NCBI GenBank assembly: GCA_964370935.1
Contig: CAYJKI010000010.1
Span: forward strand, 4,420-68,419
Direction of reading: 5' to 3'
DNA from: an uncultured Ignavibacteria bacterium
Lineage (GTDB): Bacteria > Zixibacteria > MSB-5A5 > CAIYYT01
DNA: 64,000 bases
Shown here: piece after piece, positions 3,137-42,176 of the stretch
Layout: the number at the start of each line of letters is the position of its first letter
Numbering within the stretch: position 1 is the first letter of the stretch
Notes under the pieces: generated by a model
What the model was told of the DNA's origin: nothing
What the model saw: only the letters and a program-made list of their open reading frames with translations
The model's database searches: none
Position numbers and translations under genes: made by a program

Positions 3137-4436
3137 GGTTGGATTCGATAGCGCGAAATCGCGCAAGTTGATGGAATTGTCATCGGAGATCATTCCCGGC
3201 GGCGTGAACTCGCCGGTGCGAGCGTTTAAGTCGGTTGGCGGAACGCCGAAGTTCATTGCCAAGGGCAACGGCGCATATCTGTACGATGTCGACGGCAACA
3301 AGTATCTCGATTTCTGCAACTCATGGGGACCACTGATTCTCGGCCATGTCGACAAGGATGTCGTTGCCGCAGTCAAGGCGCAGATCGATAAGGGGATGAC
3401 ATTTGGAGCTTCGACGGAGCTCGAATACGATCTGGCGAAGTTCATAGTCCAGCATGTAGATGTCGTAGAAAAGATTCGCTTTGTCTCCTCCGGCACTGAA
3501 GCGGTCATGTCGGCAATACGCGTGGCGCGCGGATTTACCAAACGCGATTTGATTTTAAAATTCGACGGTTGTTATCACGGACACTGCGACCACTTGTTGG
3601 TCAAGGCGGGTTCAGGATTGGCGACATTTGGCCAGCCGTCTTCTGCAGGAGTACCAGATGCGATTACCAGTCAGACAGCGGTCCTGCCGCTTGATGATGA
3701 AGACGCGTTGCAGGAGTTCTTCGCCAAGCATGGTGATGAACTGGCTGCGGTCATAATTGAAGGAATTCCGGCCAACAATGGCCTGCTGATACAGCGGCAC
3801 GATTATCTGCGACTTCTGCGCGCACTAACCGAACGGCATGGGGCGTTATTGATACTCGATGAAGTAATCACCGGATTCCGCCTGGGCATGGGTGGAGCGG
3901 CAGCGTATTATGGAATTCGTCCCGACCTAGTAACTTACGGAAAGATCATCGGTGGCGGAATGCCGGTTGGAGCTTTTGGTGGACGCGCAGACATAATGAA
4001 TATGCTGTCGCCACTGGGTCCGGTGTATCAGGCAGGAACGCTTTCCGGCAATCCTGTGGCGATGACGGCGGGATTAGCGACTTTGAAGAAACTTGCCGAC
4101 GGAAAAATCTACAAAGATCTGGAAGAAAAGAATCGCCGATTTGTCACGCTGCTGATGGAGCAATTGCGTGATAACCTCGTGAATGTGGCAGGTGTTGGTT
4201 CGATTTATTGGATTGTCTTTCAAAATGATCTTCCGCGCGCGGCGCACACGATCAGCACCGACGGAATTTCGCACTATAATCGCATGCACTCGAAAATATT
4301 GGATCAGGGGATTTATCTTCCGCCGTCGGGATACGAAGTATGTTTCCTGTCAGCGGCGCATACGGATGAGCTTCTCGAGCAGGCGGCTTCGATACTTGCG
4401 ACCGCGATTAAGAAAGAAGCGCACGTATGGGCATAG
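3120..4436 (+). CDS. hemL: Glutamate-1-semialdehyde 2,1-aminomutase
   Basis: PGGVNSPVRAF, SSGTEAVMSAIR, DEVITGFR, GKIIGGGMPVGA, YQAGTLSGNP. Confidence 0.98.
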   Translation: MAGITKVGFDSAKSRKLMELSSEIIPGGVNSPVRAFKSVGGTPKFIAKGNGAYLYDVDGNKYLDFCNSWGPLILGHVDKDVVAAVKAQIDKGMTFGASTELEYDLAKFIVQHVDVVEKIRFVSSGTEAVMSAIRVARGFTKRDLILKFDGCYHGHCDHLLVKAGSGLATFGQPSSAGVPDAITSQTAVLPLDDEDALQEFFAKHGDELAAVIIEGIPANNGLLIQRHDYLRLLRALTERHGALLILDEVITGFRLGMGGAAAYYGIRPDLVTYGKIIGGGMPVGAFGGRADIMNMLSPLGPVYQAGTLSGNPVAMTAGLATLKKLADGKIYKDLEEKNRRFVTLLMEQLRDNLVNVAGVGSIYWIVFQNDLPRAAHTISTDGISHYNRMHSKILDQGIYLPPSGYEVCFLSAAHTDELLEQAASILATAIKKEAHVWA

Positions 4437-23996: not shown

Positions 23997-24422
23997 ATGC
24001 TGAAGCCGGAGATCAAGGGCGACACGATTGTCGTGCCGTCCGACCCCAGTTTAATTGGGGAGATTGATGAGTTTGTCGAGTCGCGATTGCGTTCACGCAA
24101 TATCGACGACTCGATCATTGCCGACATAGCGATTTGTGCCACGGAGATTGCCAACAATGGCATCATCCACGGCAACAAAGAAGACCCTGACAAAACCGTC
24201 ACACTGACAATGAGCTTCTCGAACGGGGAAGTTGTGATTGTCATTAGCGATCAGGGAAGCTACTTCAATCCGGAGACGATCGAAAATCCTCTCGATGAGA
24301 AGAACCTTTTGCGCGAGGTCGGGCGCGGCATATTCATTGTGCGTAGCCTGATGGACCGCCTCGAAATCACACCCGCGAACGGCGGCGGCACGACAGTGAC
24401 ACTCGTGAAGAAGATCACCTAA
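23997..24422 (+). CDS. Anti-sigma factor Ser kinase (RsbW-like, HATPase_c)
   Basis: EIANNGIIHGN, ISDQG, GRGIFIVRSLMD. Confidence 0.92.
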   Translation: MLKPEIKGDTIVVPSDPSLIGEIDEFVESRLRSRNIDDSIIADIAICATEIANNGIIHGNKEDPDKTVTLTMSFSNGEVVIVISDQGSYFNPETIENPLDEKNLLREVGRGIFIVRSLMDRLEITPANGGGTTVTLVKKIT

Positions 24423-24442
24423 TCCCGGTTTCGGGAGGGGAT

Positions 24443-26662
24443 GTGAATCTCGAATTGATCATAGCGGTCGTCTACCTCGCGTGTGCGACCCTGTTGTTCA
24501 TAATATCCGTATTGATATTCCGGGAAGACCCACGCAAGCGCATCAACCGTGTGACGGCATTGATGTTCGGCTTTGCGGCGTTCGGCCCGTTGTTCTACGG
24601 ATTCGGGATTTTCATCGGTGATGCCATCACCAGCCGCGGACCGATTTACAATCTAGTTTACGTCTGGGAATTGTTCTTTCCGCAGTTAGTGTTCTTCGCA
24701 CTGGTATTTCCTTCGACGTTGCGTTTCTACAACCGCTTCGCGCGTTTGAAGTACCTTATCTTCGTACCACACTTATTCCATCTGGCCTTGACGACGATCT
24801 TGAGCGATCCCGACGAGTTGGTACGTCTTGTGGATCCCAAGAAGATGGGTGCTTTCGGTAAGGCAATTTTTGAGCCGTTGGAGACGGTGTTCACACTGAT
24901 CGCCACCGGTTTCTCGATCTTGCTCGACAGCCATATCAAGCTGTTCTCGATCGTGAACTTTGTCTATGTCATTATCGCCGCAGTGATTCTTTACTATGCC
25001 ACCAAACGGGTGATGGCGGTGCAGCTGCGCAAGCAGGTGCAGATCGTCATTTACGGAATCATCACAGCTCTGGCGATGTATGTCATAGCATTCATCATGC
25101 CGGCGATCGGCGTTCTGACTTTGAGCAACGAGTGGCAGAATTTCATCACGATACTCGCGTTGGTGATTGGTTGCGGATCGATCGTGTTTGCGATCGTACG
25201 CTACCGGTTTATGGATGTGCGCCTGATTGTACGGCAGTCGCTGGTGTATACGGTGTCTTCCGCGATGGTGGTCGGCGCCTACGTGCTGATCATCCGGCAA
25301 TTCGAAGATATCGTAAAGTACCTGTTCGGTTTTGATGTTCCCGGTCTGGATATTGTCTTTATCATTATTGCGTTGATACTTTTCCCGTCGGTAATGAGCC
25401 AAGTCGATGAACTGATCCGGAAATTTTTCATTCGCGACAAGTCGGATTATCGCAATATCTCGCAAACCTTCAGCCGCAAGGTAGCCTCGGTATTCAAGCT
25501 CGACGAGGTGTTCGCGCTGGCGCACGAAGTACTTTCGCGGCAACTTCTCTTGGAAAGAGTCTATATATTCGCGCGAACGGCGAGCCACAACGGAGTCACC
25601 AATGTGACCGCTTCCGCTGATGAAGAAGAATGGGAGGCGATGGACATTGAAGCGCCGTTGATGGCGGAATTGGCCCGGCGCAGCGGCGTGAACAACATTG
25701 ATGAGTTATCGGGTGCGTTTCCGCAGTCGATTTTCCTTAAGCAACTGGCGTCGCGACGGGCACGTTTTGTGGCGCCGATGATTTCGGGAGACGAGATTCT
25801 AGGGTGTCTGGCAGTCTCGGATAAGGTTTCCGGGTATCGGCTGAACTACGAAGACGTGACAACGATTTCGATTATCGCCGATCAGCTCTCGCTGGCGATT
25901 AACACGTCGCGCCTTTATCGAGAGTCGATTGAAAAACAGCGTCTCGAAGAAGAGATGAACATTGCCCGCACGATTCAGATCGACCTCTTGCCGAAGGTCT
26001 TTCCGTCGGGTGACGACTTTCATTTCTCGGCATTCTCCGATCCATCGCTGGAAGTCGGGGGAGACTATTTCGATTTCATTAAGACGCGGCGCGGAACAAT
26101 CGCTATGGTTATAGCGGATGCTTCGGGCAAGGGTGTTCCGGCGGCGTTGCTCATCAGCCAGATTCACGCGGCGATTCGTACTGAAATCCGCCACGATTTG
26201 CCGTTGGGGCAGATTCTGGTCAATGTCAACGAACTCTTGCAGAAGGAAGAGATCACCGACAAATTTGCGACTCTGTTTGTTGCCGATTATGATCCACGCA
26301 CCAAAATTCTGCATTATGCCAATGCCGGCCACAACTATCCAATATTGATCTCGCGCAACGGAGATGTCGAACTTGACCGCGGCGGGCTGCTGTTGGGAGC
26401 ATTCCGTGATGTCGCCTATGACGAGGGAGAAGTCCAGCTGCAGAGCAATGACATACTTTTCCTATACACGGATGGATTGAACGAGTGTATAAACAGCAAA
26501 GACGAGCAGTATGGCGAAGGGCGAGCAGTGGACCTGATCAAGCTTCATCATGCCCTGACGGCGCCGGAGATACAGCAACGGATAATTGATGACGTTCATG
26601 AGTTCGCGGCACCGATGGCGCTGCAGGACGATATGACGCTGGTATTGTTGAAGGTTCATTAG
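24443..26662 (+). CDS. Multi-TM sensor + GAF + SpoIIE/PP2C phosphatase (RsbU-like)
   Basis: Many N-terminal TM helices; GAF region; ARTIQIDLLP, VGGDYFD, IADASGKGVPAAL, NAGHNYP, YTDGLNE, QDDMTLV. Confidence 0.92.
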   Translation: MNLELIIAVVYLACATLLFIISVLIFREDPRKRINRVTALMFGFAAFGPLFYGFGIFIGDAITSRGPIYNLVYVWELFFPQLVFFALVFPSTLRFYNRFARLKYLIFVPHLFHLALTTILSDPDELVRLVDPKKMGAFGKAIFEPLETVFTLIATGFSILLDSHIKLFSIVNFVYVIIAAVILYYATKRVMAVQLRKQVQIVIYGIITALAMYVIAFIMPAIGVLTLSNEWQNFITILALVIGCGSIVFAIVRYRFMDVRLIVRQSLVYTVSSAMVVGAYVLIIRQFEDIVKYLFGFDVPGLDIVFIIIALILFPSVMSQVDELIRKFFIRDKSDYRNISQTFSRKVASVFKLDEVFALAHEVLSRQLLLERVYIFARTASHNGVTNVTASADEEEWEAMDIEAPLMAELARRSGVNNIDELSGAFPQSIFLKQLASRRARFVAPMISGDEILGCLAVSDKVSGYRLNYEDVTTISIIADQLSLAINTSRLYRESIEKQRLEEEMNIARTIQIDLLPKVFPSGDDFHFSAFSDPSLEVGGDYFDFIKTRRGTIAMVIADASGKGVPAALLISQIHAAIRTEIRHDLPLGQILVNVNELLQKEEITDKFATLFVADYDPRTKILHYANAGHNYPILISRNGDVELDRGGLLLGAFRDVAYDEGEVQLQSNDILFLYTDGLNECINSKDEQYGEGRAVDLIKLHHALTAPEIQQRIIDDVHEFAAPMALQDDMTLVLLKVH

Positions 26663-33800: not shown

Positions 33801-34194
33801 TGGAGCCGAGAACCGCCTGGCGCAGGCCATCGACTATCCAGAATTTGACGGTATTGTGACTTTCCGGGCGAGGTTATACTTGATCCGCGGACAATTTGAA
33901 ATGCAGCGGGAGAATTACGGACGGGCAATTCCGTTGCTCAATGACGCCGTTCTGGCAGCCAAATCTTCGCGAATGATGGAGATGTTGTGGTTTGGCCTTT
34001 TGGCGCTGGGAGACTGTCAACGTCAGCAGAGTCAGTTGGAGCAGTCGCTGAAGTCGTACATTGAGGCCTTCAATACCGTGAAGCAGCTTGCTGGAGAAAT
34101 CACCGACAAGCGCCTGCGGAAACTTTACCTGTCGGACAGACGCAAAGCACTGTTGGGAAAACGTCTCGAGGAGATGTCGTCACTGGTTGCCTAA
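30883..34194 (+). CDS. Hanks-type Ser/Thr kinase fused to a long TPR array
   Basis: IGAGGCGEV, VAVK, HRDLKGEN, SDLG, GTLEYMAPE, SDIYSLG; TPRs such as YNNIGNI, LSNLGSI, YNNLAVAY. Confidence 0.9.
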   Translation: MEPRFPASSLLDGAQRIGAGGCGEVFFASHARWGKVAVKVAFSPDEETRRLFLAEYSRLRSFRHRAILKAHDLFFLDDQRPAIVMQLCDGGDLYQSTDPLPVRERFRCLGQVLSAIQYLHLLGLIHRDLKGENVLISTSTGAQLSDLGLAAAKSDDSRERGGTLEYMAPEVIANKGATIESDIYSLGIMLYRLATGTLPFESSDPVQVISRKQQPDALPLDSLATLVSPRFAKLVRQCIDPDPAERPKSAKDVAEQLIIDKLVNSSDFGEHKFADLFHHYIFSYNAGFCKQELKSPSNHLEISHEYQDEAGELRESVSDFLKQSGFVVLESAEGLQFSREGEPNPGTVLLTPQLNDGRQIRYAELDRFAFDAILGKIITREIDTSTADLIYGLSSGNLALVTILLNQLEQENRFDVSSGKLKLSPLERSHFQPADSYFQLAAKLLPQLPPQLVEVAGFLAADTGEFPIPELLAMGRLSQTEFDDLVTSGLLQAQTGSFARGYYRSCLYHSLDRSTVQRYHFGWTKVIDETDELPPATRERLLLHHHYRAGATREAIEAAMRLADLRQDEQNLEEAASVLDFACSMEGNRADLRLYVTMLMKQADLLNKLGDFTAALSAYSRVVRFGRRIDFTEMVAAAYKRLGDVYKGKRDYRRGNRALDRAVKFYGEKGNELELSHCYNNIGNICWINGDLVNAATNYEKALTIQRELGVMRDIASTLSNLGSIRCILHGYDNGIPLFKESIEIKKKLNDLPELARTYNNLAVAYFELDELATAHEYLKQSFEINQKIGANSELHYNYDNFHEIEIRRGNYSKAREWLIEGLKNSAREAHSARGGFITSLAALSILEGRYSKAGALLAAARAREEKVTDRQFSMRLAATYADYFYCLQDYGHAYDYIQTAIEYAQKIGETKGNAIFLIRRARIERAISRPLAEVQATLDEAERFLAPLPGKREKHELILDRAELALVTGDIRGAENRLAQAIDYPEFDGIVTFRARLYLIRGQFEMQRENYGRAIPLLNDAVLAAKSSRMMEMLWFGLLALGDCQRQQSQLEQSLKSYIEAFNTVKQLAGEITDKRLRKLYLSDRRKALLGKRLEEMSSLVA

Positions 34195-34224
34195 AAAGCA
34201 GAAGGACCGCGTTGCGGCGGTCCT
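34193..34224 (-). terminator. Intrinsic terminator after the 23-aa peptide gene (may also serve the convergent kinase gene)
   Basis: Minus strand AGGACCGC-CGCAAC-GCGGTCCT followed by TCTGCTTTTT. Confidence 0.75.
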
Positions 34225-34250
34225 CCATGCAAACCGGTTAAGAGGTCGAG

Positions 34251-34322
34251 TTATTGACCACCCTGGCTGAAACCTGCTGGGGCGACTTTCTCCTCGAGCA
34301 CTTCGATGATGAGATTATACAT
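34251..34322 (-). CDS. 23-aa RiPP-like precursor/signalling peptide MYNLIIEVLEEKVAPAGFSQGGQ (not in the ORF track)
   Basis: AGGAGGAGGTG Shine-Dalgarno just upstream of ATG 34322; TAA at 34253-34251; own terminator; IExLEExxAP leader-like motif; lies next to an RRE-peptidase gene. Confidence 0.85.
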   Translation of the reverse strand: MYNLIIEVLEEKVAPAGFSQGGQ

Positions 34323-34652
34323 AGCGTCACCTCCTCCTATGAAGTTAAGGTAACCGGTTACCACGACACCGGCAACGCCGGTGACCTTCTATCAGTTAAG
34401 CCGACAACATCGGCTAACATTTCTGCCGTGACCCAAAAACCTACATCCGTGTAGTGTTCAACTTTTATCTCATCAATAGCTTTAAGTTAACTGTTAAAGT
34501 ATACGTTCAAAGTCCATATAAGTCAAATTAATTTTGGACAGGATTGGCTATTTCTTGGGTGCAAACTTGCACCAGGACAAACTCTGATACTATATGTAGT
34601 GTGCCAGTTCGAGGTTCCTCCACGAGATATTGTGTCTGCTGACAGATTTTGT

Positions 34653-36908
34653 CTAAAACCAGGACCAAAACTCGAGACGGAAGAATCGGGTGACTTTTCG
34701 CAAGGACAAACCCGCAAGTGAGACTTTGCCGCAGTCAACCTTGGCATACCCCGTCATTTCGGGCAAGAGGAAGTTGTTGGCATTAGGGACGGTTGCGACC
34801 GCCATCAAACTCGGAGACAGCTTGAGTTTGATGACTTTGCCGAAATTCTTGATCGAAGGAAAGGCATGGACGCGCAACTGCATGTCCGACCCGGGCGACA
34901 GGATGTCCAGATCAGACTCATCGAGCTTGACTTCGACAACCAGTGAATCGGTGCGAGCCAGATGGAGAATGTCGTTGGGGTTGGATGTTCCGACCATTGT
35001 TCCGGCAAACGGACTCACAATTACCGACGCATTGAGTTGCTCATCCAAGTAGGCGACGCGGGATCGTAGCTTTTCGATTTCGGCGTCGATTTTCTCAACT
35101 TCTTCGGCTTTAGGCGCAGAGCGCAACAGCTTTAGTTCTGATTTGCGCGAGTTCCACACTGACGTTGCGACGTTAAAGGCAGCAGAAGCTCTTTCAAACT
35201 CATCTTCAGAAATCAGCTGCTGTTTGTGAAGTTCCTTGACACGATTGAGTTCTTTGCGTGCGGCCTCGTAGACGGCTTCGGCCTCTTTGATTTCAGACCG
35301 TTTGGTGGCAACGGCTTCGACTTTGGGATCGGAAAGCAGCAGGCGGCGATCGGCCTCGGCCTTCTTGAGATCAGAAGCAGCTTCAGCCAGAAGGCCGCGG
35401 TTAAGAGTCGAGTTAATTACCAGCAGCGTATCTCCGGCGGCAACGGTCTCGCCGACGGAAACGCTGGGGCGAATCTGGGTGACGGCATTATCCGACTGCG
35501 AGAGCTGGAAGAGCTTGGAGATGCTCTCTTCTATGACGCCGCCGCGAAAATAAGAACTTTCGAGCGAGCTGGGTCCGATGCGGGTGACGACAAACGATTC
35601 GGTGGCGATTAAACGCGCTTCACCGCCCGATGTCTGCTCAACCTTGACCAAAATAGCGAGCGCAAGGATAATGACCAGCGCCACGCCATAAAACACGATG
35701 CGCTTTGGCTTCATCCAATCCACTTTCCTTTCACGCCACACTTCCATGATGCGGCTCCCACTCGTTTTAAACAGTCTTTTAAAAATAAGGAATACCAGTG
35801 CCAGGAACAACAGAAATCCAATGCCTGCCCAATGTTCGACAAAGAACTGGCCGCCGCGATAAACGATGAAGATTATCAGCAGGGCCGAGTAGAGCAGAGC
35901 GAAGGCGCCATAGCGGCGATAGATTTTCCGCTCGCGCGCAGAAGGCTTGACCAGGGTATCGTCGAGGCACCCGAAGAAGATCACCTTGGTGCGGGTCCAC
36001 ATATAGGAGAAAGCTTTTTGGCGCAAGTTAGGAATCTGTAGGTAGTCAGCGAGCAGATAGTAGCCGTCCAGCTTGATTGCCGGATTCAGGTTAAATACCA
36101 GGGTGGCGAAGCAAACGGCAGAGGTCCAATAGAAGATGCGGTTGAGCGGGTAGCCTTCCATGGTCATTCGCCAGAGCACTGTGAACAACGCCCAGAGAAA
36201 CAGCTGGAAGAATATTCCGGCGAACATCACGACGAAGCGCTGGCGCTTATTCGGGAAGAGATAGGCATCGGATAGATTGCAGTAGAACGCCGGCTGGAAG
36301 TAGATCAACAGGAATCCCATTTCGTGGACTGCCCCGCCGTAGCGCTTGCAAGCGAATGCGTGAGCATACTCGTGAATTGTGGTGATGATGAAGATTCCGG
36401 CAATAATGGAGACAACGTCAGCCGCCGAAAAGATTGTCATCAGGTTGAACGGAAACTTGCTGATATTGGCGAAGAACACCGCCATGCCGACTACGGTGAA
36501 TATTATGAGCAAAGTCACCGCCGGAGGAGAGAAGAGCCAGCCGATACGCGGATACCAGCGGTTAAGGAATCTGTCGGGATCAAAGGCCTTCAGTTTGATG
36601 AATAGAACCGATTTCCCGCCGTCTTTGCGGGTCGCCTCGACTCCTTCAAGGAATCCCAGTTGGCCGAGTTGTTTAGCGAATTGGGCGATAGCTTCGCCGG
36701 TGATCGTGGTGTTGAAAGTACGAACGAAGTCTTCTGCGGCGTCGTCCGGTGTACGGGTGCCGTCGAGTAGATTGACAAGGTAGTATTCCGGTTCGCGCAG
36801 GCGGATGAACTTGCCGGTATCGGGCGACTTGACAGTGTAGTAGTCGACGCCTTCGACTTTCTCTACCTGAACTTGGAGATCAGTTCTGCGTTTCGGGTAT
36901 TCGCTCAT
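34653..36908 (-). CDS. PqqD/RRE domain - M50 (site-2-like) intramembrane zinc peptidase - HlyD-type periplasmic adaptor fusion
   Basis: N-terminal 3-strand/3-helix RRE pattern (YYTVKSPDTGKFIRLREPEYYLVNLLDGTRT...QLGQLGFLE); HEYAH; FNLNPAIKLDGYY; many TMs; VGETVAAGDTLL lipoyl-like half, coiled coil, IVSPFAGTM. Confidence 0.88.
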   Translation of the reverse strand: MSEYPKRRTDLQVQVEKVEGVDYYTVKSPDTGKFIRLREPEYYLVNLLDGTRTPDDAAEDFVRTFNTTITGEAIAQFAKQLGQLGFLEGVEATRKDGGKSVLFIKLKAFDPDRFLNRWYPRIGWLFSPPAVTLLIIFTVVGMAVFFANISKFPFNLMTIFSAADVVSIIAGIFIITTIHEYAHAFACKRYGGAVHEMGFLLIYFQPAFYCNLSDAYLFPNKRQRFVVMFAGIFFQLFLWALFTVLWRMTMEGYPLNRIFYWTSAVCFATLVFNLNPAIKLDGYYLLADYLQIPNLRQKAFSYMWTRTKVIFFGCLDDTLVKPSARERKIYRRYGAFALLYSALLIIFIVYRGGQFFVEHWAGIGFLLFLALVFLIFKRLFKTSGSRIMEVWRERKVDWMKPKRIVFYGVALVIILALAILVKVEQTSGGEARLIATESFVVTRIGPSSLESSYFRGGVIEESISKLFQLSQSDNAVTQIRPSVSVGETVAAGDTLLVINSTLNRGLLAEAASDLKKAEADRRLLLSDPKVEAVATKRSEIKEAEAVYEAARKELNRVKELHKQQLISEDEFERASAAFNVATSVWNSRKSELKLLRSAPKAEEVEKIDAEIEKLRSRVAYLDEQLNASVIVSPFAGTMVGTSNPNDILHLARTDSLVVEVKLDESDLDILSPGSDMQLRVHAFPSIKNFGKVIKLKLSPSLMAVATVPNANNFLLPEMTGYAKVDCGKVSLAGLSLRKVTRFFRLEFWSWF

Positions 36909-36955
36909 GCGGGAGCAATATTGGAATCGTGAAGACTAAGTGCAAGCGCAATGCT

Positions 36956-36980
36956 AAAAGGGCAAGCTTGCGCTTGCCCT
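36956..36980 (-). terminator. Intrinsic terminator after the vWA gene
   Basis: Minus strand AGGGCAAGC-GCAA-GCTTGCCCT followed by TTT. Confidence 0.7.
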
Positions 36981-37036
36981 CATTGTCTGCCCCTTTGTTC
37001 ACCGCTGGAAGGAGCCAGTCATCTCTTAAATACTCA

Positions 37037-39034: not shown

Positions 39035-39230
39035 AGATCCTCCGATTGGATTGAGGTTTAACTAAGTACCTTTGTCTTCAATACAGGCGGTATAGGTGCT
39101 TATTCCCGAAATGCAAAAAAAAGTAAATGAGGTTGGCAGACAGGGCGGGAATCCCCATTCCCGATTGCTAAAACCTCGATAAGTCGGTATATTATTGGCG
39201 GCTAAACCCAACCTCGCCCTGGAGGGCAAA

Positions 39231-42176
39231 GTGAATCCACGAGCAATTGTGTTAATATTCGCCACGCTGGTATTTTTGGGCTTTTGCGGCGTATCTGCTG
39301 CAAATTTCGGATACAACTCCTCGCCCGGATTCCAGATTGGTTCGACCTATCAGGATCTACAACATAACGCCCGCATGGCCAGACAGATCGTGGTCGGCGG
39401 CGGGTGGGTGCATAATATCTGGACACATCTGCCGGGGCCGAGCACAGCCAACCGCGCTGTTCAGTACTACGCCTGGCAGATTGGCGGTCCGGGAGTGGTA
39501 TTTAACGCCAATGTTGATTCGAGCATTGGCGCAGGATACAGTGCCATTGACTTTGATCCGACGAACGTTGGAGCAGCGGTGGTCGGGTATCATCATGTTG
39601 CTTCGGGAGGAACAAGATTTTCACGAGATACAGGAGTCGGGGTTGGTGCGTTTTCGCTGCGGTACACGTTTCCAGCGGCGAATTGTCAGGGGATCGTAAG
39701 TGGTTCAGATGCAACAGAAGGACTCTATTATTGGCCGGTCATCGCAACGGATGTCGATGGCTCCGGTAATGGCGTTGTGCATGCAGTCTCAACGGAAAGC
39801 CCGGCAACTGCGAGTGATGTGATGTCGATCATCTATTACAGGTCGAACAGCGGAATTACCGGAGTTGGCGCGACTTGCGGCATCTGGATTGACTCGGTTG
39901 ACAATATTGCGGCTACGGTAGTGGCTGATCCGAATTCGGACAATGTTGCCATCGTGTATTTAGTACCGGCAGACTATGCATTCAACGCCGGTCTTCAGCA
40001 ACACAATCAGGATGTCGTGTACCGCGAGTCGATTGATCTGGGCGAAAGCTGGGGGCCGGTGATTAATGTCAGCAACTACACTGGTGCAGATCCAGAGCGC
40101 GCCTATTCAGACGTCAGCGCAATGTATACTTCGGACGGTTGTCTGCACATCGCCTGGGTCGCTGCAAATTTCGATTCGTCTACAGGGTCCTCGGCAGACG
40201 ACGCATGTAAATTGCGCCACTGGGATGATTGCGGTCAGTGCATTTCGACGATCCTGAATGCACAACACGCCGAAGTATCCTGTGATCGCGGATCCTGGCA
40301 GAATAATATTGCTCGCGTCAATCTCACTGAATGCGAAGCAGCGTCTCAGAAGAATCTCTATGCTACTTACACTTATTTTCTCGGCTCGGATACGGGAATT
40401 CCCGGACCGTCAGACTGCTCGATGAAGGGATATGCAAATGGCGAACTATTCATGCAGGTTTCTTCGACCGATGGACTGACCTGGGGTCCGCAGATCAACC
40501 TGACGAATACAGCCTCTCCAGGCTGTAACGGCGATTGCGCCTCCGAAAATTGGTCATCGAGTGCCATGTACGTAACCGACTCGTTGCGTCTTCAGTATCT
40601 TCTAGACCTTGACGCCGGTCGTGTCAGCGGTGCCGAGGGCTCTTGGACCAATAATCCGATCATGAACATGGCGGTACCGTGTGTGGCAGCTGCTCCATAC
40701 GCATCAATCTCAATCAACCCGGCTCAGATAGTTTATCCCGAGATCTATCTGATGCCTGATAGCGTCACCAGCAAGACGCTGACGCTGACCAATGCGGGCA
40801 ACTTTAATACGGTTGTGACCCGCAAGGTCGAGTACCTCGACGGGAATGGCTGGCTGTCATTTCCGGACTTGGATAGCGTCTTCGTCGTACCTGCAGGATG
40901 CGCAAATGCGCAGTCGATGACGATGGTTGTCACAGCTCCACATGATGAAGGCAACTACGATGTCAACGTCCATTTCATCTATGACAATGGCGCCGCCCTT
41001 GACACGGCGACACTGTCGTTTCGGCTGTGGGATTTCTGTCCATTTATCGATGATTTTTCAACGTTTAGGACCACCTGTAACCGGCTTGAAATCTTGCGCA
41101 CGGCTCGTGCCAGAGACTTTTATGACTATAGCGACAGCAATGAGTATTTGTACGACGCTTCGCTGATCCTGGGAAACGGCCCCAGCAAACTTTGCTGGTC
41201 GATATACAAGGATTATGAGAACTATTGCCGCCCGACGTTTCCAGCGGGACATCTATTCGGACTCAGTGGGTTCTATGTGATAACTAACGAGAACGATTAT
41301 CCCAGCTACTGCAAAGGGTCGGCTTACGGAAGGAACGATGACTCTACGCTAGGATACTCGGTGGATTTCTACGCTCCGAAGCACCCGGATAGCTGTGATT
41401 TTTTCGTAGCGAGTTTCAAGATTTACAAGGGTGCCAACGATTCCTTGGGTGTTGTCAGCAACCTCACGGTCGGGTTTGCCTGTGATTGGGATGCGCCGGC
41501 TGACACCGGTTCAGACAATACCGGCGGATTTGATGCGGGAAGACAAATGCTGTACCAGCGCGGGTTGGAATTTGGTCCGACGGAAGAGAATTATGGAGCT
41601 GTTGCGGCTTACCGCGACGACGGAGTGCCGATTGTCGGCGGATTTATCTGGGACAGTCCGACGCATGTTTACCCTACGGCTGACTATGTGGCGGCCGATC
41701 TTTGGAATCAAATGGAGTCTTTGTCAACCGGCGAGTACACGACATATGGGTTGGTCGATGACCTTAGTAGTGTTCTGACGATTTACCGCGATGCGAGCAT
41801 CAATGGGGCAACTCATGACACATTGAAGTTTGTCGTTATTCTGGCGGCGGAGAATTCGGGGCCATTGACCGACTTGAAGCACACAGTCGACAAGGCAATA
41901 AGCTTCGTTAACAACCATGGAATAGGCTCAATTGTGCCGACAAACTGCTGCCTTCACGGCGATGCCGATAATAGCGGGTTTCTGAACATTTCCGACGTAG
42001 TTTACTTAATTAACTACATCTTTGTCGGTGGTCCGGCCCCGGTGAGTGAATGTGAGGGCGACAACAACTGTGACTGCGTTGTTTCAATTTCCGACGCTGT
42101 CTATTCGATCATTTATATTTTCGGTGGCGGACAGCCGCCGCCACAGTGTTGTCCGGGCTGTATCTACGACTGGTAG
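39231..42176 (+). CDS. Large secreted Cys-rich protein with propeller-like N-terminal region and C-terminal dockerin-like repeat pair (start placed at GTG 39231)
   Basis: GGAGG RBS; signal peptide; SIDLGESW and STDGLTWG Asp-box-like motifs; GDADNSGFLNISDVVYLINYIF...GDNNCDCVVSISDAVY. Confidence 0.8.
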   Translation: MNPRAIVLIFATLVFLGFCGVSAANFGYNSSPGFQIGSTYQDLQHNARMARQIVVGGGWVHNIWTHLPGPSTANRAVQYYAWQIGGPGVVFNANVDSSIGAGYSAIDFDPTNVGAAVVGYHHVASGGTRFSRDTGVGVGAFSLRYTFPAANCQGIVSGSDATEGLYYWPVIATDVDGSGNGVVHAVSTESPATASDVMSIIYYRSNSGITGVGATCGIWIDSVDNIAATVVADPNSDNVAIVYLVPADYAFNAGLQQHNQDVVYRESIDLGESWGPVINVSNYTGADPERAYSDVSAMYTSDGCLHIAWVAANFDSSTGSSADDACKLRHWDDCGQCISTILNAQHAEVSCDRGSWQNNIARVNLTECEAASQKNLYATYTYFLGSDTGIPGPSDCSMKGYANGELFMQVSSTDGLTWGPQINLTNTASPGCNGDCASENWSSSAMYVTDSLRLQYLLDLDAGRVSGAEGSWTNNPIMNMAVPCVAAAPYASISINPAQIVYPEIYLMPDSVTSKTLTLTNAGNFNTVVTRKVEYLDGNGWLSFPDLDSVFVVPAGCANAQSMTMVVTAPHDEGNYDVNVHFIYDNGAALDTATLSFRLWDFCPFIDDFSTFRTTCNRLEILRTARARDFYDYSDSNEYLYDASLILGNGPSKLCWSIYKDYENYCRPTFPAGHLFGLSGFYVITNENDYPSYCKGSAYGRNDDSTLGYSVDFYAPKHPDSCDFFVASFKIYKGANDSLGVVSNLTVGFACDWDAPADTGSDNTGGFDAGRQMLYQRGLEFGPTEENYGAVAAYRDDGVPIVGGFIWDSPTHVYPTADYVAADLWNQMESLSTGEYTTYGLVDDLSSVLTIYRDASINGATHDTLKFVVILAAENSGPLTDLKHTVDKAISFVNNHGIGSIVPTNCCLHGDADNSGFLNISDVVYLINYIFVGGPAPVSECEGDNNCDCVVSISDAVYSIIYIFGGGQPPPQCCPGCIYDW

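Follow-up and report, generated by a model that had tools for sequence, protein, structure and literature searches.

How might a bacterium with two membranes make, release and perceive a peptide of only a few residues? The question is raised by a locus in the genome of an uncultured Ignavibacteria bacterium (Bacteria; Zixibacteria; MSB-5A5; CAIYYT01 in GTDB; assembly GCA_964370935.1), of which we analysed a 64,000-nucleotide stretch (positions 4,420 to 68,419 of contig CAYJKI010000010.1), hereafter the window. On its reverse strand, the window carries a 23-codon open reading frame (ORF), separated by 330 nt from the stop codon of a 751-aa ORF in which a recognition element for peptides that are made on ribosomes and modified after translation (RiPP recognition element, RRE), an intramembrane M50 peptidase and a periplasmic adaptor are joined (hereafter the fusion; coordinates of all features are collected in Table 1). 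The original prediction, made from the letters of the window, saw in these two genes a minimal two-gene system for peptide maturation and export. The best explanation of the results presented below is a wider one, namely, a single four-gene module which is conserved across Zixibacteria, consists of the peptide, the fusion, a Ser/Thr kinase with tetratricopeptide repeats (kinase-TPR) and a histidine kinase, and has as its basis a wider family of peptidase-exporters that depend on a leader and have not been described.

The 23-codon ORF is a real gene under protein-level selection, as the original prediction supposed. Among 80 loci with fusion relatives fetched from species-representative genomes, eight had less than 450 nt downstream; in 45 of the remaining 72 scorable loci, a hidden Markov model (HMM) of the peptide, seeded from regular-expression matches and built from relatives, found the peptide on the fusion-gene strand, 150–450 nt past the fusion stop, which was the outcome that had been expected of a scan of the flanks of fusion homologues for short leader-bearing ORFs. 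In the alignment of 51 peptides, L4, E7, L9 and E10 are invariant and A14, P15, S19 and G21 are at least 90% conserved, Ser19 of the putative core being present in 48 sequences; the column of the last residue of the window peptide holds 34 Gln, five Glu, two Ser, one Gly, one Leu, six gaps and two unlisted entries, and some peptides are longer. Differences between peptide genes at codon positions 1, 2 and 3 number 8616, 7396 and 17466, respectively, that is, with an excess at the third position, and pN/pS is 0.39 over all pairs and 0.18 for 11 close relatives.

Expression signals of the gene are equally well preserved. The Shine-Dalgarno sequence AGGAGGAGGTGA, rightly described in the original prediction as very strong, is strictly conserved in a DNA alignment of 14 sequences, and GGAGGT is matched at five or more of its six positions upstream of all 55 peptide genes examined (at all six in 54). 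The sigma-70-type promoter implies a 5' untranslated region (UTR) of ~165 nt; both hexamers are kept in 11 of the 14 aligned relatives, the alignment displaying a conserved TTGACA, a 17-nt spacer and TATACT ~175 nt 5' of the peptide gene, and a -35 box, CTTGACAA, lies 110–215 nt upstream of the gene in all nine of the more distant loci listed. The gene also has its own terminator, again as predicted, a hairpin located between the convergent peptide and kinase genes which belongs to the minimum-free-energy fold of the transcript, retains its stem, with changes, in relatives and is probably bidirectional. A search of positions 34100–34700 against Rfam returned no match at E ≤ 1, and the folding energy of the transcript is not unusual (z = -1.5).

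Several smaller elements flank the gene. A perfect 14-nt palindrome, GGTAACCGGTTACC, is found at 34349–34362 on the reverse strand, 27 nt 5' of the start codon, and AACCGGTT is repeated on that strand at 34232–34239, 12 nt past the peptide stop. The CCGG boxes at about -35 and at +13 to +16 are retained in ~14 loci of the window's clade, and the minimum-free-energy fold, with only the z given above, pairs both of them, enclosing the ribosome-binding site and the ORF; they could constitute an operator pair or a translational control helix. In another clade (L025, L042, L053 and L104–L107), CACCTC, which is complementary to the Shine-Dalgarno sequence, lies 29–44 nt past the peptide stop, and such an anti-Shine-Dalgarno hexamer is present 3' of the peptide gene in 9–10 of 51 loci versus 26 of 1020 random control windows.

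Contigs assembled from four metatranscriptome runs (three studies) were compared with positions 34000–37000. They span 34096–34473, and those with zero to two differences span 34131–34473, which takes in the UTR, the ORF and the terminator; three contigs, drawn from three studies, end at 34462–34473, and two are more divergent, apparently deriving from relatives. The peptide gene is the only part of the locus that is recovered near-identically (0–2 differences) in metatranscriptomes of at least two studies, the fusion ORF being matched by two divergent pieces only. These contigs hint, weakly but consistently, that the peptide gene gives rise to an abundant small transcript of its own. We did not take the parts of the locus without RNA contigs to be silent, because lack of cover is no evidence for silence, and an assignment of habitat from shares of 0.05–0.10 of sequencing runs was rejected as uninformative.

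The 751-aa protein proved to have the composite architecture that had been proposed for it. It scores 34.6 bits against Pfam Peptidase_M50 (PF02163; cut-off 27.2) and carries HExxH and NPxxxLDG in membrane segments, features which place it in the M50 family, and residues H179, E180, H183, N273, N275, P276 and D281 are invariant in 15 relatives. Residues 14–381 match NF041824, the daptide leader peptidase model, with an E-value of 1.9e-63 and 214.9 bits, below the 300-bit equivalog cut-off, and the RRE region falls inside this match. On its own, the RRE of the window protein is weakly matched, both by PqqD (E 0.026 at full length, 0.0022 for residues 1–125) and by PDB profiles (PqqD, 0.43; lasso RRE TfuB1, 0.71); across the family the match is clear, PqqD being matched by 18 of 20 N-termini with E-values down to 8.8e-8. 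The C-terminal half, used as a profile against the PDB, retrieves MacA (8.9e-15), EmrA (4.3e-12) and HlyD (0.021), and NCBIfam adaptor models match it at 5e-17 (HlyD PRK03598) to 1e-8, all under their equivalog cut-offs; a MacA-type adaptor is conserved in every fusion relative. Hydropathy indicates ~7 transmembrane segments, the last at 404–422, which is consistent with a cytoplasmic N-terminus and a periplasmic adaptor. R-x3-L-x6-S at residues 556–567, visible in the alignment of relatives, resembles what we take to be the hairpin-tip motif of adaptors. The C-terminal tail, E-x-W-S-W-F/W (34656–34679), is invariant in 15 relatives and kept in a distant subfamily of 850–950 aa; such a tail is unusual among periplasmic adaptors.

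The fusion is a single-copy gene in its genome, which also encodes ~10 TolC-like OEP proteins, none of them adjoining it; TolC is the channel with which MacA docks. More than 834 full-length relatives were found, and 1172 representative clusters, mostly of 700–950 aa, match it at E ≤ 1e-30; their database names are 'multidrug efflux pump' or 'hypothetical', with a YydH-type name at JGI. Shorter, unfused homologues were considered and dismissed, most of the 106 matches being fragments on short contigs. In a 94%-identical relative (L015, 6001–8254), the fusion is split over several shorter frames, and its locus exceeds those of relatives by one base, probably an assembly frameshift.

The strongest evidence on what the fusion does comes from this wider family. 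Scanning of metagenomes with an alignment of the 850–950-aa members yielded 80 loci of a distant subfamily (L135–L214; 33–35% identical). Directly upstream of the fusion gene, 48 of the 57 soil-metagenome loci with at least 400 nt of upstream sequence have a same-strand ORF with the leader, and all 69 leader-motif ORFs of the subfamily are on the fusion-gene strand. Their leader reads L(-12), h(-10), E(-9), L(-7), E(-6), K/R(-4), I/V(-3), A(-2), P(-1), giving L-x-h-E-x-L-E-x-K/R-h-A-P as the common motif; the regular expression used fixes part of this motif, L(-12) lies outside it, and the peptide HMM made from Zixibacteria only also finds these ORFs. The cores, by contrast with the leader, are variable: they comprise 23–213 aa, are rich in Gly, Ser, Lys and His, and 65 of the 69 are distinct. 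No Pfam or NCBIfam model recognizes the precursors. A conserved leader attached to unrelated cargo follows the logic of leader-guided maturation and is good evidence that the fusion recognizes and cuts leader-bearing peptides, which it probably exports as well. The soil cores include long low-complexity sequences, GSKSH-type repeats, ATQATH repeats, His-rich tails and Cys-rich segments, one being weakly similar to His-Xaa-Ser repeat proteins (E 0.36), and in 30 loci a 325-aa protein without a Pfam family is encoded directly 3' of the fusion gene.

The closest known counterpart of the fusion is found in daptides (DapA/MpaA, DapP/MpaP). According to the daptide paper, an RRE is joined to the N-terminus of a site-2 protease in daptide peptidases, and these enzymes remove a leader with the motif ELExMEAP, which ends in A-P(-1), from precursors with an invariant C-terminal Thr. 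The window system shares the N-terminal RRE and the intramembrane M50 peptidase and, in keeping with the leader resemblance noted in the original prediction, L(-7), E/D(-6), A(-2) and P(-1) of the leader, whereas positions -8, -4 and -3 differ. Nevertheless, the original prediction was also correct in excluding a daptide. The score of the fusion stays under the daptide family cut-off; the 8-residue core ends in Gln, whereas the daptide core is a hydrophobic helix ending in Thr; there are no DapB, DapC, DapD or DapM genes near the window peptide; there is no ABC exporter, the peptidase being fused to a periplasmic adaptor instead; and daptide hosts are Actinomycetota or Bacillota rather than a double-membraned phylum. 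Among the 17 neighbouring ORFs (20.8–47.7 kb of the window), none encodes an ABC ATPase, a C39 peptidase or a tailoring enzyme of the classical kind, as had been observed from the letters, and there is no daptide-modifying enzyme save one generic, non-conserved methyltransferase 13 kb away; the conserved neighbour clusters contain none either. With the C-terminal Thr and the modifying enzymes missing, the module is not a daptide system.

Two other groups of systems offer partial parallels. In the epipeptide systems (YydF/EpeX-YydH/EpeP), a membrane M50 enzyme matures and perhaps exports a small peptide, the M50 peptidase EpeP being thought, according to a review, both to cut and to export. The fusion matches the NCBIfam YydH/LiaK model (2.4e-13), but the window system lacks the radical-SAM epimerase and the ABC transporter, and has RRE and adaptor domains added. 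With MacAB-TolC, HlyBD-TolC and peptidase-containing ABC transporters, it shares a MacA/HlyD-type adaptor, a leader peptidase joined to export machinery and TolC-like genes in the genome; here, however, M50 peptidase and adaptor form one protein, the vicinity holds no conserved ABC, RND or MFS gene, and the leader ends in Ala-Pro, unlike double-glycine leaders, which end in Gly-Gly. With no pump gene nearby, the module is not a classical tripartite pump.

The 'minimal two-gene' part of the original prediction, by contrast, did not hold, as two further genes belong to the conserved module. The kinase-TPR gene is convergent with the peptide gene and ends 57 nt from the peptide stop, and the histidine kinase gene ends 10 nt upstream of the kinase-TPR gene, the two presumably forming one operon. 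When the neighbours in the 80 fetched loci and the window were clustered, the kinase-TPR turned up at 43 of the 46 fusion loci that bear the peptide and at none of the 35 others (eight of which are too short downstream), and the GAF-PAS histidine kinase at 38 of these 46. For ten of the 27 fusion loci that lack the peptide, the genome was tested, and every one carries the peptide elsewhere; seven of these ten unlinked peptide genes have a convergent TPR gene (six kinase-TPR, one cut by the contig end), two lie beside a co-directional TPR-sigma54 activator and one is ~3 kb from a TPR protein. Nineteen further peptide loci, from eleven families, include 14 with a convergent kinase-TPR, each with the histidine kinase directly upstream. 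The peptide is thus more tightly linked to the kinase-TPR and the histidine kinase than to the fusion.

The same association is apparent at the level of whole genomes. For 151 sampled genomes of the phylum, among them that of the window, the fusion was scored with its first 430 residues (E ≤ 1e-20) and the leader with a degenerate DNA pattern. The motif is present in 121 of the 135 genomes with the fusion and absent from 14, and it is present in six of the 16 genomes without the fusion and absent from ten; in total, 127 genomes have it, compared with ~51 for a reversed-pattern control. Because the reversed pattern matches that many genomes, the six motif-only cases are at background level, and most of them translate to unrelated words. 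Five of the 14 fusion-only genomes were inspected, and in each the peptide is present, convergent with a more divergent TPR gene. An orthologue of the kinase TPR region (E ≤ 1e-25) was recovered from 121 of the 151 genomes, each time at one locus only (split in one genome); every one of these 121 also has the fusion, and the orthologue is missing from all 16 genomes without the fusion. Hence, peptide, fusion, kinase-TPR and histidine kinase co-occur across Zixibacteria, mostly in adjacency. Many records of relatives (L004–L083) are labelled Ignavibacteria, Terriglobales, Acidobacteriota or Deferrimicrobium; the NCBI labels outside Zixibacteria are doubtful, one 'Terriglobales' record being the same in its hits as a genome of the phylum sample (G102).

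Table 1. Features of the peptide-kinase locus, in window coordinates.
Feature	Position	Strand	Basis or remark
Cytoplasmic GAF-PAS histidine kinase, 579 aa	29134..30873	+	Pfam; no transmembrane segment
Ser/Thr kinase (residues 15-257), degenerate STAND middle, TPR sensor (~561-1103), 1103 aa	30883..34194	+	Pfam
Intrinsic terminator hairpin of peptide gene	34201..34226	-	10 pairs (7 G-C) and T run
Precursor peptide gene, 23 codons and stop	34251..34322	-	ATG at 34322, stop at 34253-34251
Putative core, peptide residues 16-23	34254-34277	-	ORF translation
Leader, peptide residues 1-15, Ala-Pro end	34278-34322	-	ORF translation and alignment
Shine-Dalgarno sequence AGGAGGAGGTGA	34327..34338	-	3' end 4 nt from ATG
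Sigma-70-type promoter of peptide gene: TTGACT, 17-nt spacer, TATACT	34498..34526	-	Scan, 10/12 positions
RRE-M50 protease-periplasmic adaptor fusion, 751 aa	34653..36908	-	Pfam, NCBIfam, PDB profile, hydropathy
Periplasmic MacA/EmrA/HlyD-type adaptor, residues ~450-751	34656..35561	-	PDB profile hits
Region homologous to daptide intramembrane leader peptidase, residues 14-381	35766..36869	-	NF041824
NPAIKLDG (within NLNPAIKLDG)	36063-36086	-	Zinc-site motif
HEYAH, residues 179-183	36360-36374	-	Zinc-site motif
PqqD-like RRE, residues 28-87, cytoplasmic	36648..36827	-	PqqD match

The kinase-TPR matches Pkinase (2.3e-44) and TPR_12 (1e-25), lacks transmembrane segments and has catalytic residues that are all invariant in 34 orthologues. 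Distant orthologues retain an AAA_16 NTPase. When the window's family was aligned by hhalign to a kinase-AAA_16-TPR orthologue (probability 100), gaps stood opposite the P-loop core; judged by this alignment, the kinase-TPR is a STAND-type protein that has lost its P-loop core. It shares with MalT-like and kinase-AAA-TPR proteins the order of effector, nucleotide-binding oligomerization domain (NOD) and TPR (MalT-like TPR match, 9.1e-9), but differs in the missing P-loop core and in that the proposed inducer is a gene-encoded peptide. In STAND proteins, the TPR end binds the inducer. Because of the effector-NOD-TPR order and the presumed co-transcription with a sensor kinase, we read the link between peptide and kinase as that of a ligand and its sensor, and consider the chances of such functional coupling to be even.

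The similarity of the kinase domain to other systems suggests two different roles for the protein. It matches PADLOC mad6 (1.3e-59) and PD-T4-6, which could denote an anti-phage defence module around a STAND-like kinase; these matches, however, cover the generic kinase domain (residues 15–257) only, PADLOC matches neither the fusion nor the histidine kinase, and a near-universal orthologue at a single locus is unlike mobile, patchy defence genes, so that a defence function seems extremely improbable. In NCBIfam, the protein also gives generic kinase matches to LanL (1.7e-20) and LanKC (2.5e-6), and kinase domains that phosphorylate the core are known in class III/IV lanthipeptide synthetases. 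Given these matches, the near-invariant Ser of the core, the unchanging catalytic residues and the tight adjacency of the two genes, the peptide might be tailored by the kinase, with the TPR holding the leader, the kinase phosphorylating the core Ser and the fusion removing the leader and exporting a phosphopeptide. Yet, of the lyase, kinase and cyclase domains of those synthetases, only the kinase is matched, the architecture is the effector and degenerate NOD-TPR one of STAND signalling proteins, and the presumed co-transcription with a sensor histidine kinase also speaks for signalling. Moreover, the Ser is retained in family f9, in which the kinase is unlinked, and in genome G147, in which it was not found, and the distant soil subfamily has the same leader with no Ser/Thr kinase-TPR nearby. 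Altogether, we regard tailoring by the kinase as unlikely.

Several candidate signs of peptide binding by the TPR region were set aside. The TPR-sigma54 neighbours of two peptide loci had suggested an 'output-domain swap' that would prove the TPR to be the receptor, an argument which we dropped: in G008, the kinase-TPR orthologue persists ~6 kb beyond the TPR-sigma54 activator, and the window's genome has a separate orthologue of the activator's TPR elsewhere. Conserved Asn residues of the TPR region were likewise rejected as evidence, being part of the general TPR_10/12 consensus. A comparison of kinase divergence domain by domain did not clearly indicate that receptor and peptide vary together.

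Taken together, these observations lead to the following scheme. By analogy with daptides and with EpeP, the cytoplasmic RRE would bind the leader, and the membrane-embedded zinc site would cut after Pro15, freeing an 8-residue Gly/Ser-rich peptide with the consensus x-G-h-S-x-G-G-Q; the fused MacA-like adaptor would hand the 8-mer outward, probably via one of the ~10 TolC-like channels; and the peptide, or its cytoplasmic precursor or leader, would be a ligand or regulator of the STAND-like TPR kinase, which might signal jointly with the presumably co-transcribed histidine kinase. Of these steps, processing of the precursor by the fusion appears highly probable, and export via the fused adaptor slightly more probable than its absence. 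The whole sequence, in which cleavage after Ala-Pro yields an 8-mer that is released and is coupled in function to the TPR kinase, remains the best reading and might equally prove right or wrong. We also count in its favour the tandem precursor arrays, such as that of G147, which has seven copies. In this genome (single contig, 96% complete; L109, G147:C1:1290000-1303000), the seven tandem precursor genes follow the fusion gene and encode short cores of the S-R-Y-G-A-E type, unlike that of the window, and no kinase-TPR orthologue is found at E ≤ 1e-15.

A number of points weigh against this best reading. The cut after Ala-Pro is taken from daptides and from nothing else, and RRE binding, cleavage and export by the fusion are all supposed by analogy. 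Near the fusion, neither the window neighbours nor the neighbour clusters of the 80 loci include a conserved energy source or inner-membrane pump (ABC, RND or MFS), and the fused adaptor may have a role other than export. The putative receptor has no membrane segment, so an exported peptide would need to re-enter the cell. The genome, which is 100% complete, has no SBP_bac_5, the Opp-type binding protein (a control search was positive in 11 of 14 reference genomes), and no PTR2 transporter; it does encode one OPT oligopeptide transporter. Adjacency to the kinase could be a sign of a substrate or of regulation, not of a ligand, and in family f9, the kinase orthologue is 60–120 kb from the peptide. 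The core is conserved phylum-wide, which is unusual for pheromones, as these normally diversify, and the phyletic tables overstate the support, the related genomes being non-independent. Finally, the RNA evidence consists of assembled contigs, from which strand, ends and level are not readable, and RNA libraries may hold DNA.

Because the receptor is cytoplasmic, Opp and PTR2 are missing and the core is conserved, both a substrate role of the invariant Ser and regulation inside the cell keep some weight. Under the latter, the 23-mer or its leader would act on the TPR kinase as an intracellular micro-regulator, the fusion would destroy or titrate it by regulated intramembrane proteolysis, and the adaptor would sense or scaffold at the envelope. 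Such an arrangement would suit two kinases without membrane segments in a genome with no Opp system found, a peptide whose leader is its best conserved part, and the 3' elements of two clades that might mask the ribosome-binding site and suggest tight translational control. The tandem arrays with varied cores and the long low-complexity soil cargo, however, resemble exported products, and a full MacA-type adaptor is kept in every relative, so that purely intracellular regulation strikes us as quite unlikely. The precursor arrays and the layout of leader, peptidase and exporter also recall bacteriocin systems, and one might think of an antimicrobial peptide (bacteriocin or RiPP toxin) served by an exporter of its own, with the kinases confined to regulating production. 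As a toxin, however, an unmodified Gly/Ser-rich core of eight residues would be very small, the vicinity holds no conserved gene for immunity, ABC transport or tailoring, and a near-constant core in ~90% of the phylum is unlike patchy, diversifying bacteriocins, all of which renders an antimicrobial function very improbable.

If the best reading, that of a released peptide coupled to the TPR kinase, is followed, the natural comparison is with RRNPP systems. In Rgg/SHP, a system of RRNPP type, the peptide is matured by the M50 protease Eep. The window locus likewise has a short unmodified peptide gene beside the gene of a cytoplasmic TPR protein, a similar presumed peptide length and an M50 protease. 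On the other hand, its output is a Ser/Thr kinase with a histidine kinase, in place of a helix-turn-helix domain or phosphatase; the leader of the precursor is acidic and of RRE type, not a signal-like or Sec-type sequence; no Opp system was found in the genome; the host is not a Firmicute; and binding of the peptide by the TPR is only proposed here. With output, export route and phylum all different, the module is not an RRNPP system. In the full-text literature and in the daptide paper apart from its supplementary RRE-family tables, which possibly list the family, no description of this architecture was found.

The surroundings of the module contain other genes of note. At 23997–26662 (+), an RsbW-like HATPase_c_2 protein and, after it, a GAF-SpoIIE (PP2C) phosphatase form a pair of partner-switching type on the same strand as, and upstream of, the histidine kinase and Ser/Thr kinase genes; neither protein is in any of the annotated conserved neighbour clusters. 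A 993-aa ORF at 39195–42176 (+) has no Pfam match at E ≤ 0.01 and a Cys- and Asp-rich C-terminal tail.

Taken at its fullest, the scheme would amount to a phylum-wide, gene-encoded peptide circuit, of a kind that double-membraned bacteria are not known to possess, in which a daptide-type leader, ABC-free extrusion through TolC and re-uptake deliver the 8-mer to a STAND-derived TPR kinase wired to a histidine kinase, the same family exporting hundreds of soil peptides; in this complete form, it is rather doubtful. Even so, the system suggests that bacteria with two membranes have a hitherto undescribed means of making, releasing and probably reading very small peptides. The common leader motif of the large fusion family, with its 1172 clusters, is a simple handle for mining small peptides that have escaped annotation. 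If the scheme is true, the fusion family would represent a new secretion route for many leader-tagged peptides, and, if export needs no ABC partner, a new way of moving peptides across two membranes. Peptide signalling through cytoplasmic TPR receptors is regarded as a Firmicute speciality (PMC10075063), and a near-universal module of similar kind in an uncultured double-membraned phylum would widen this Firmicute-centred picture.

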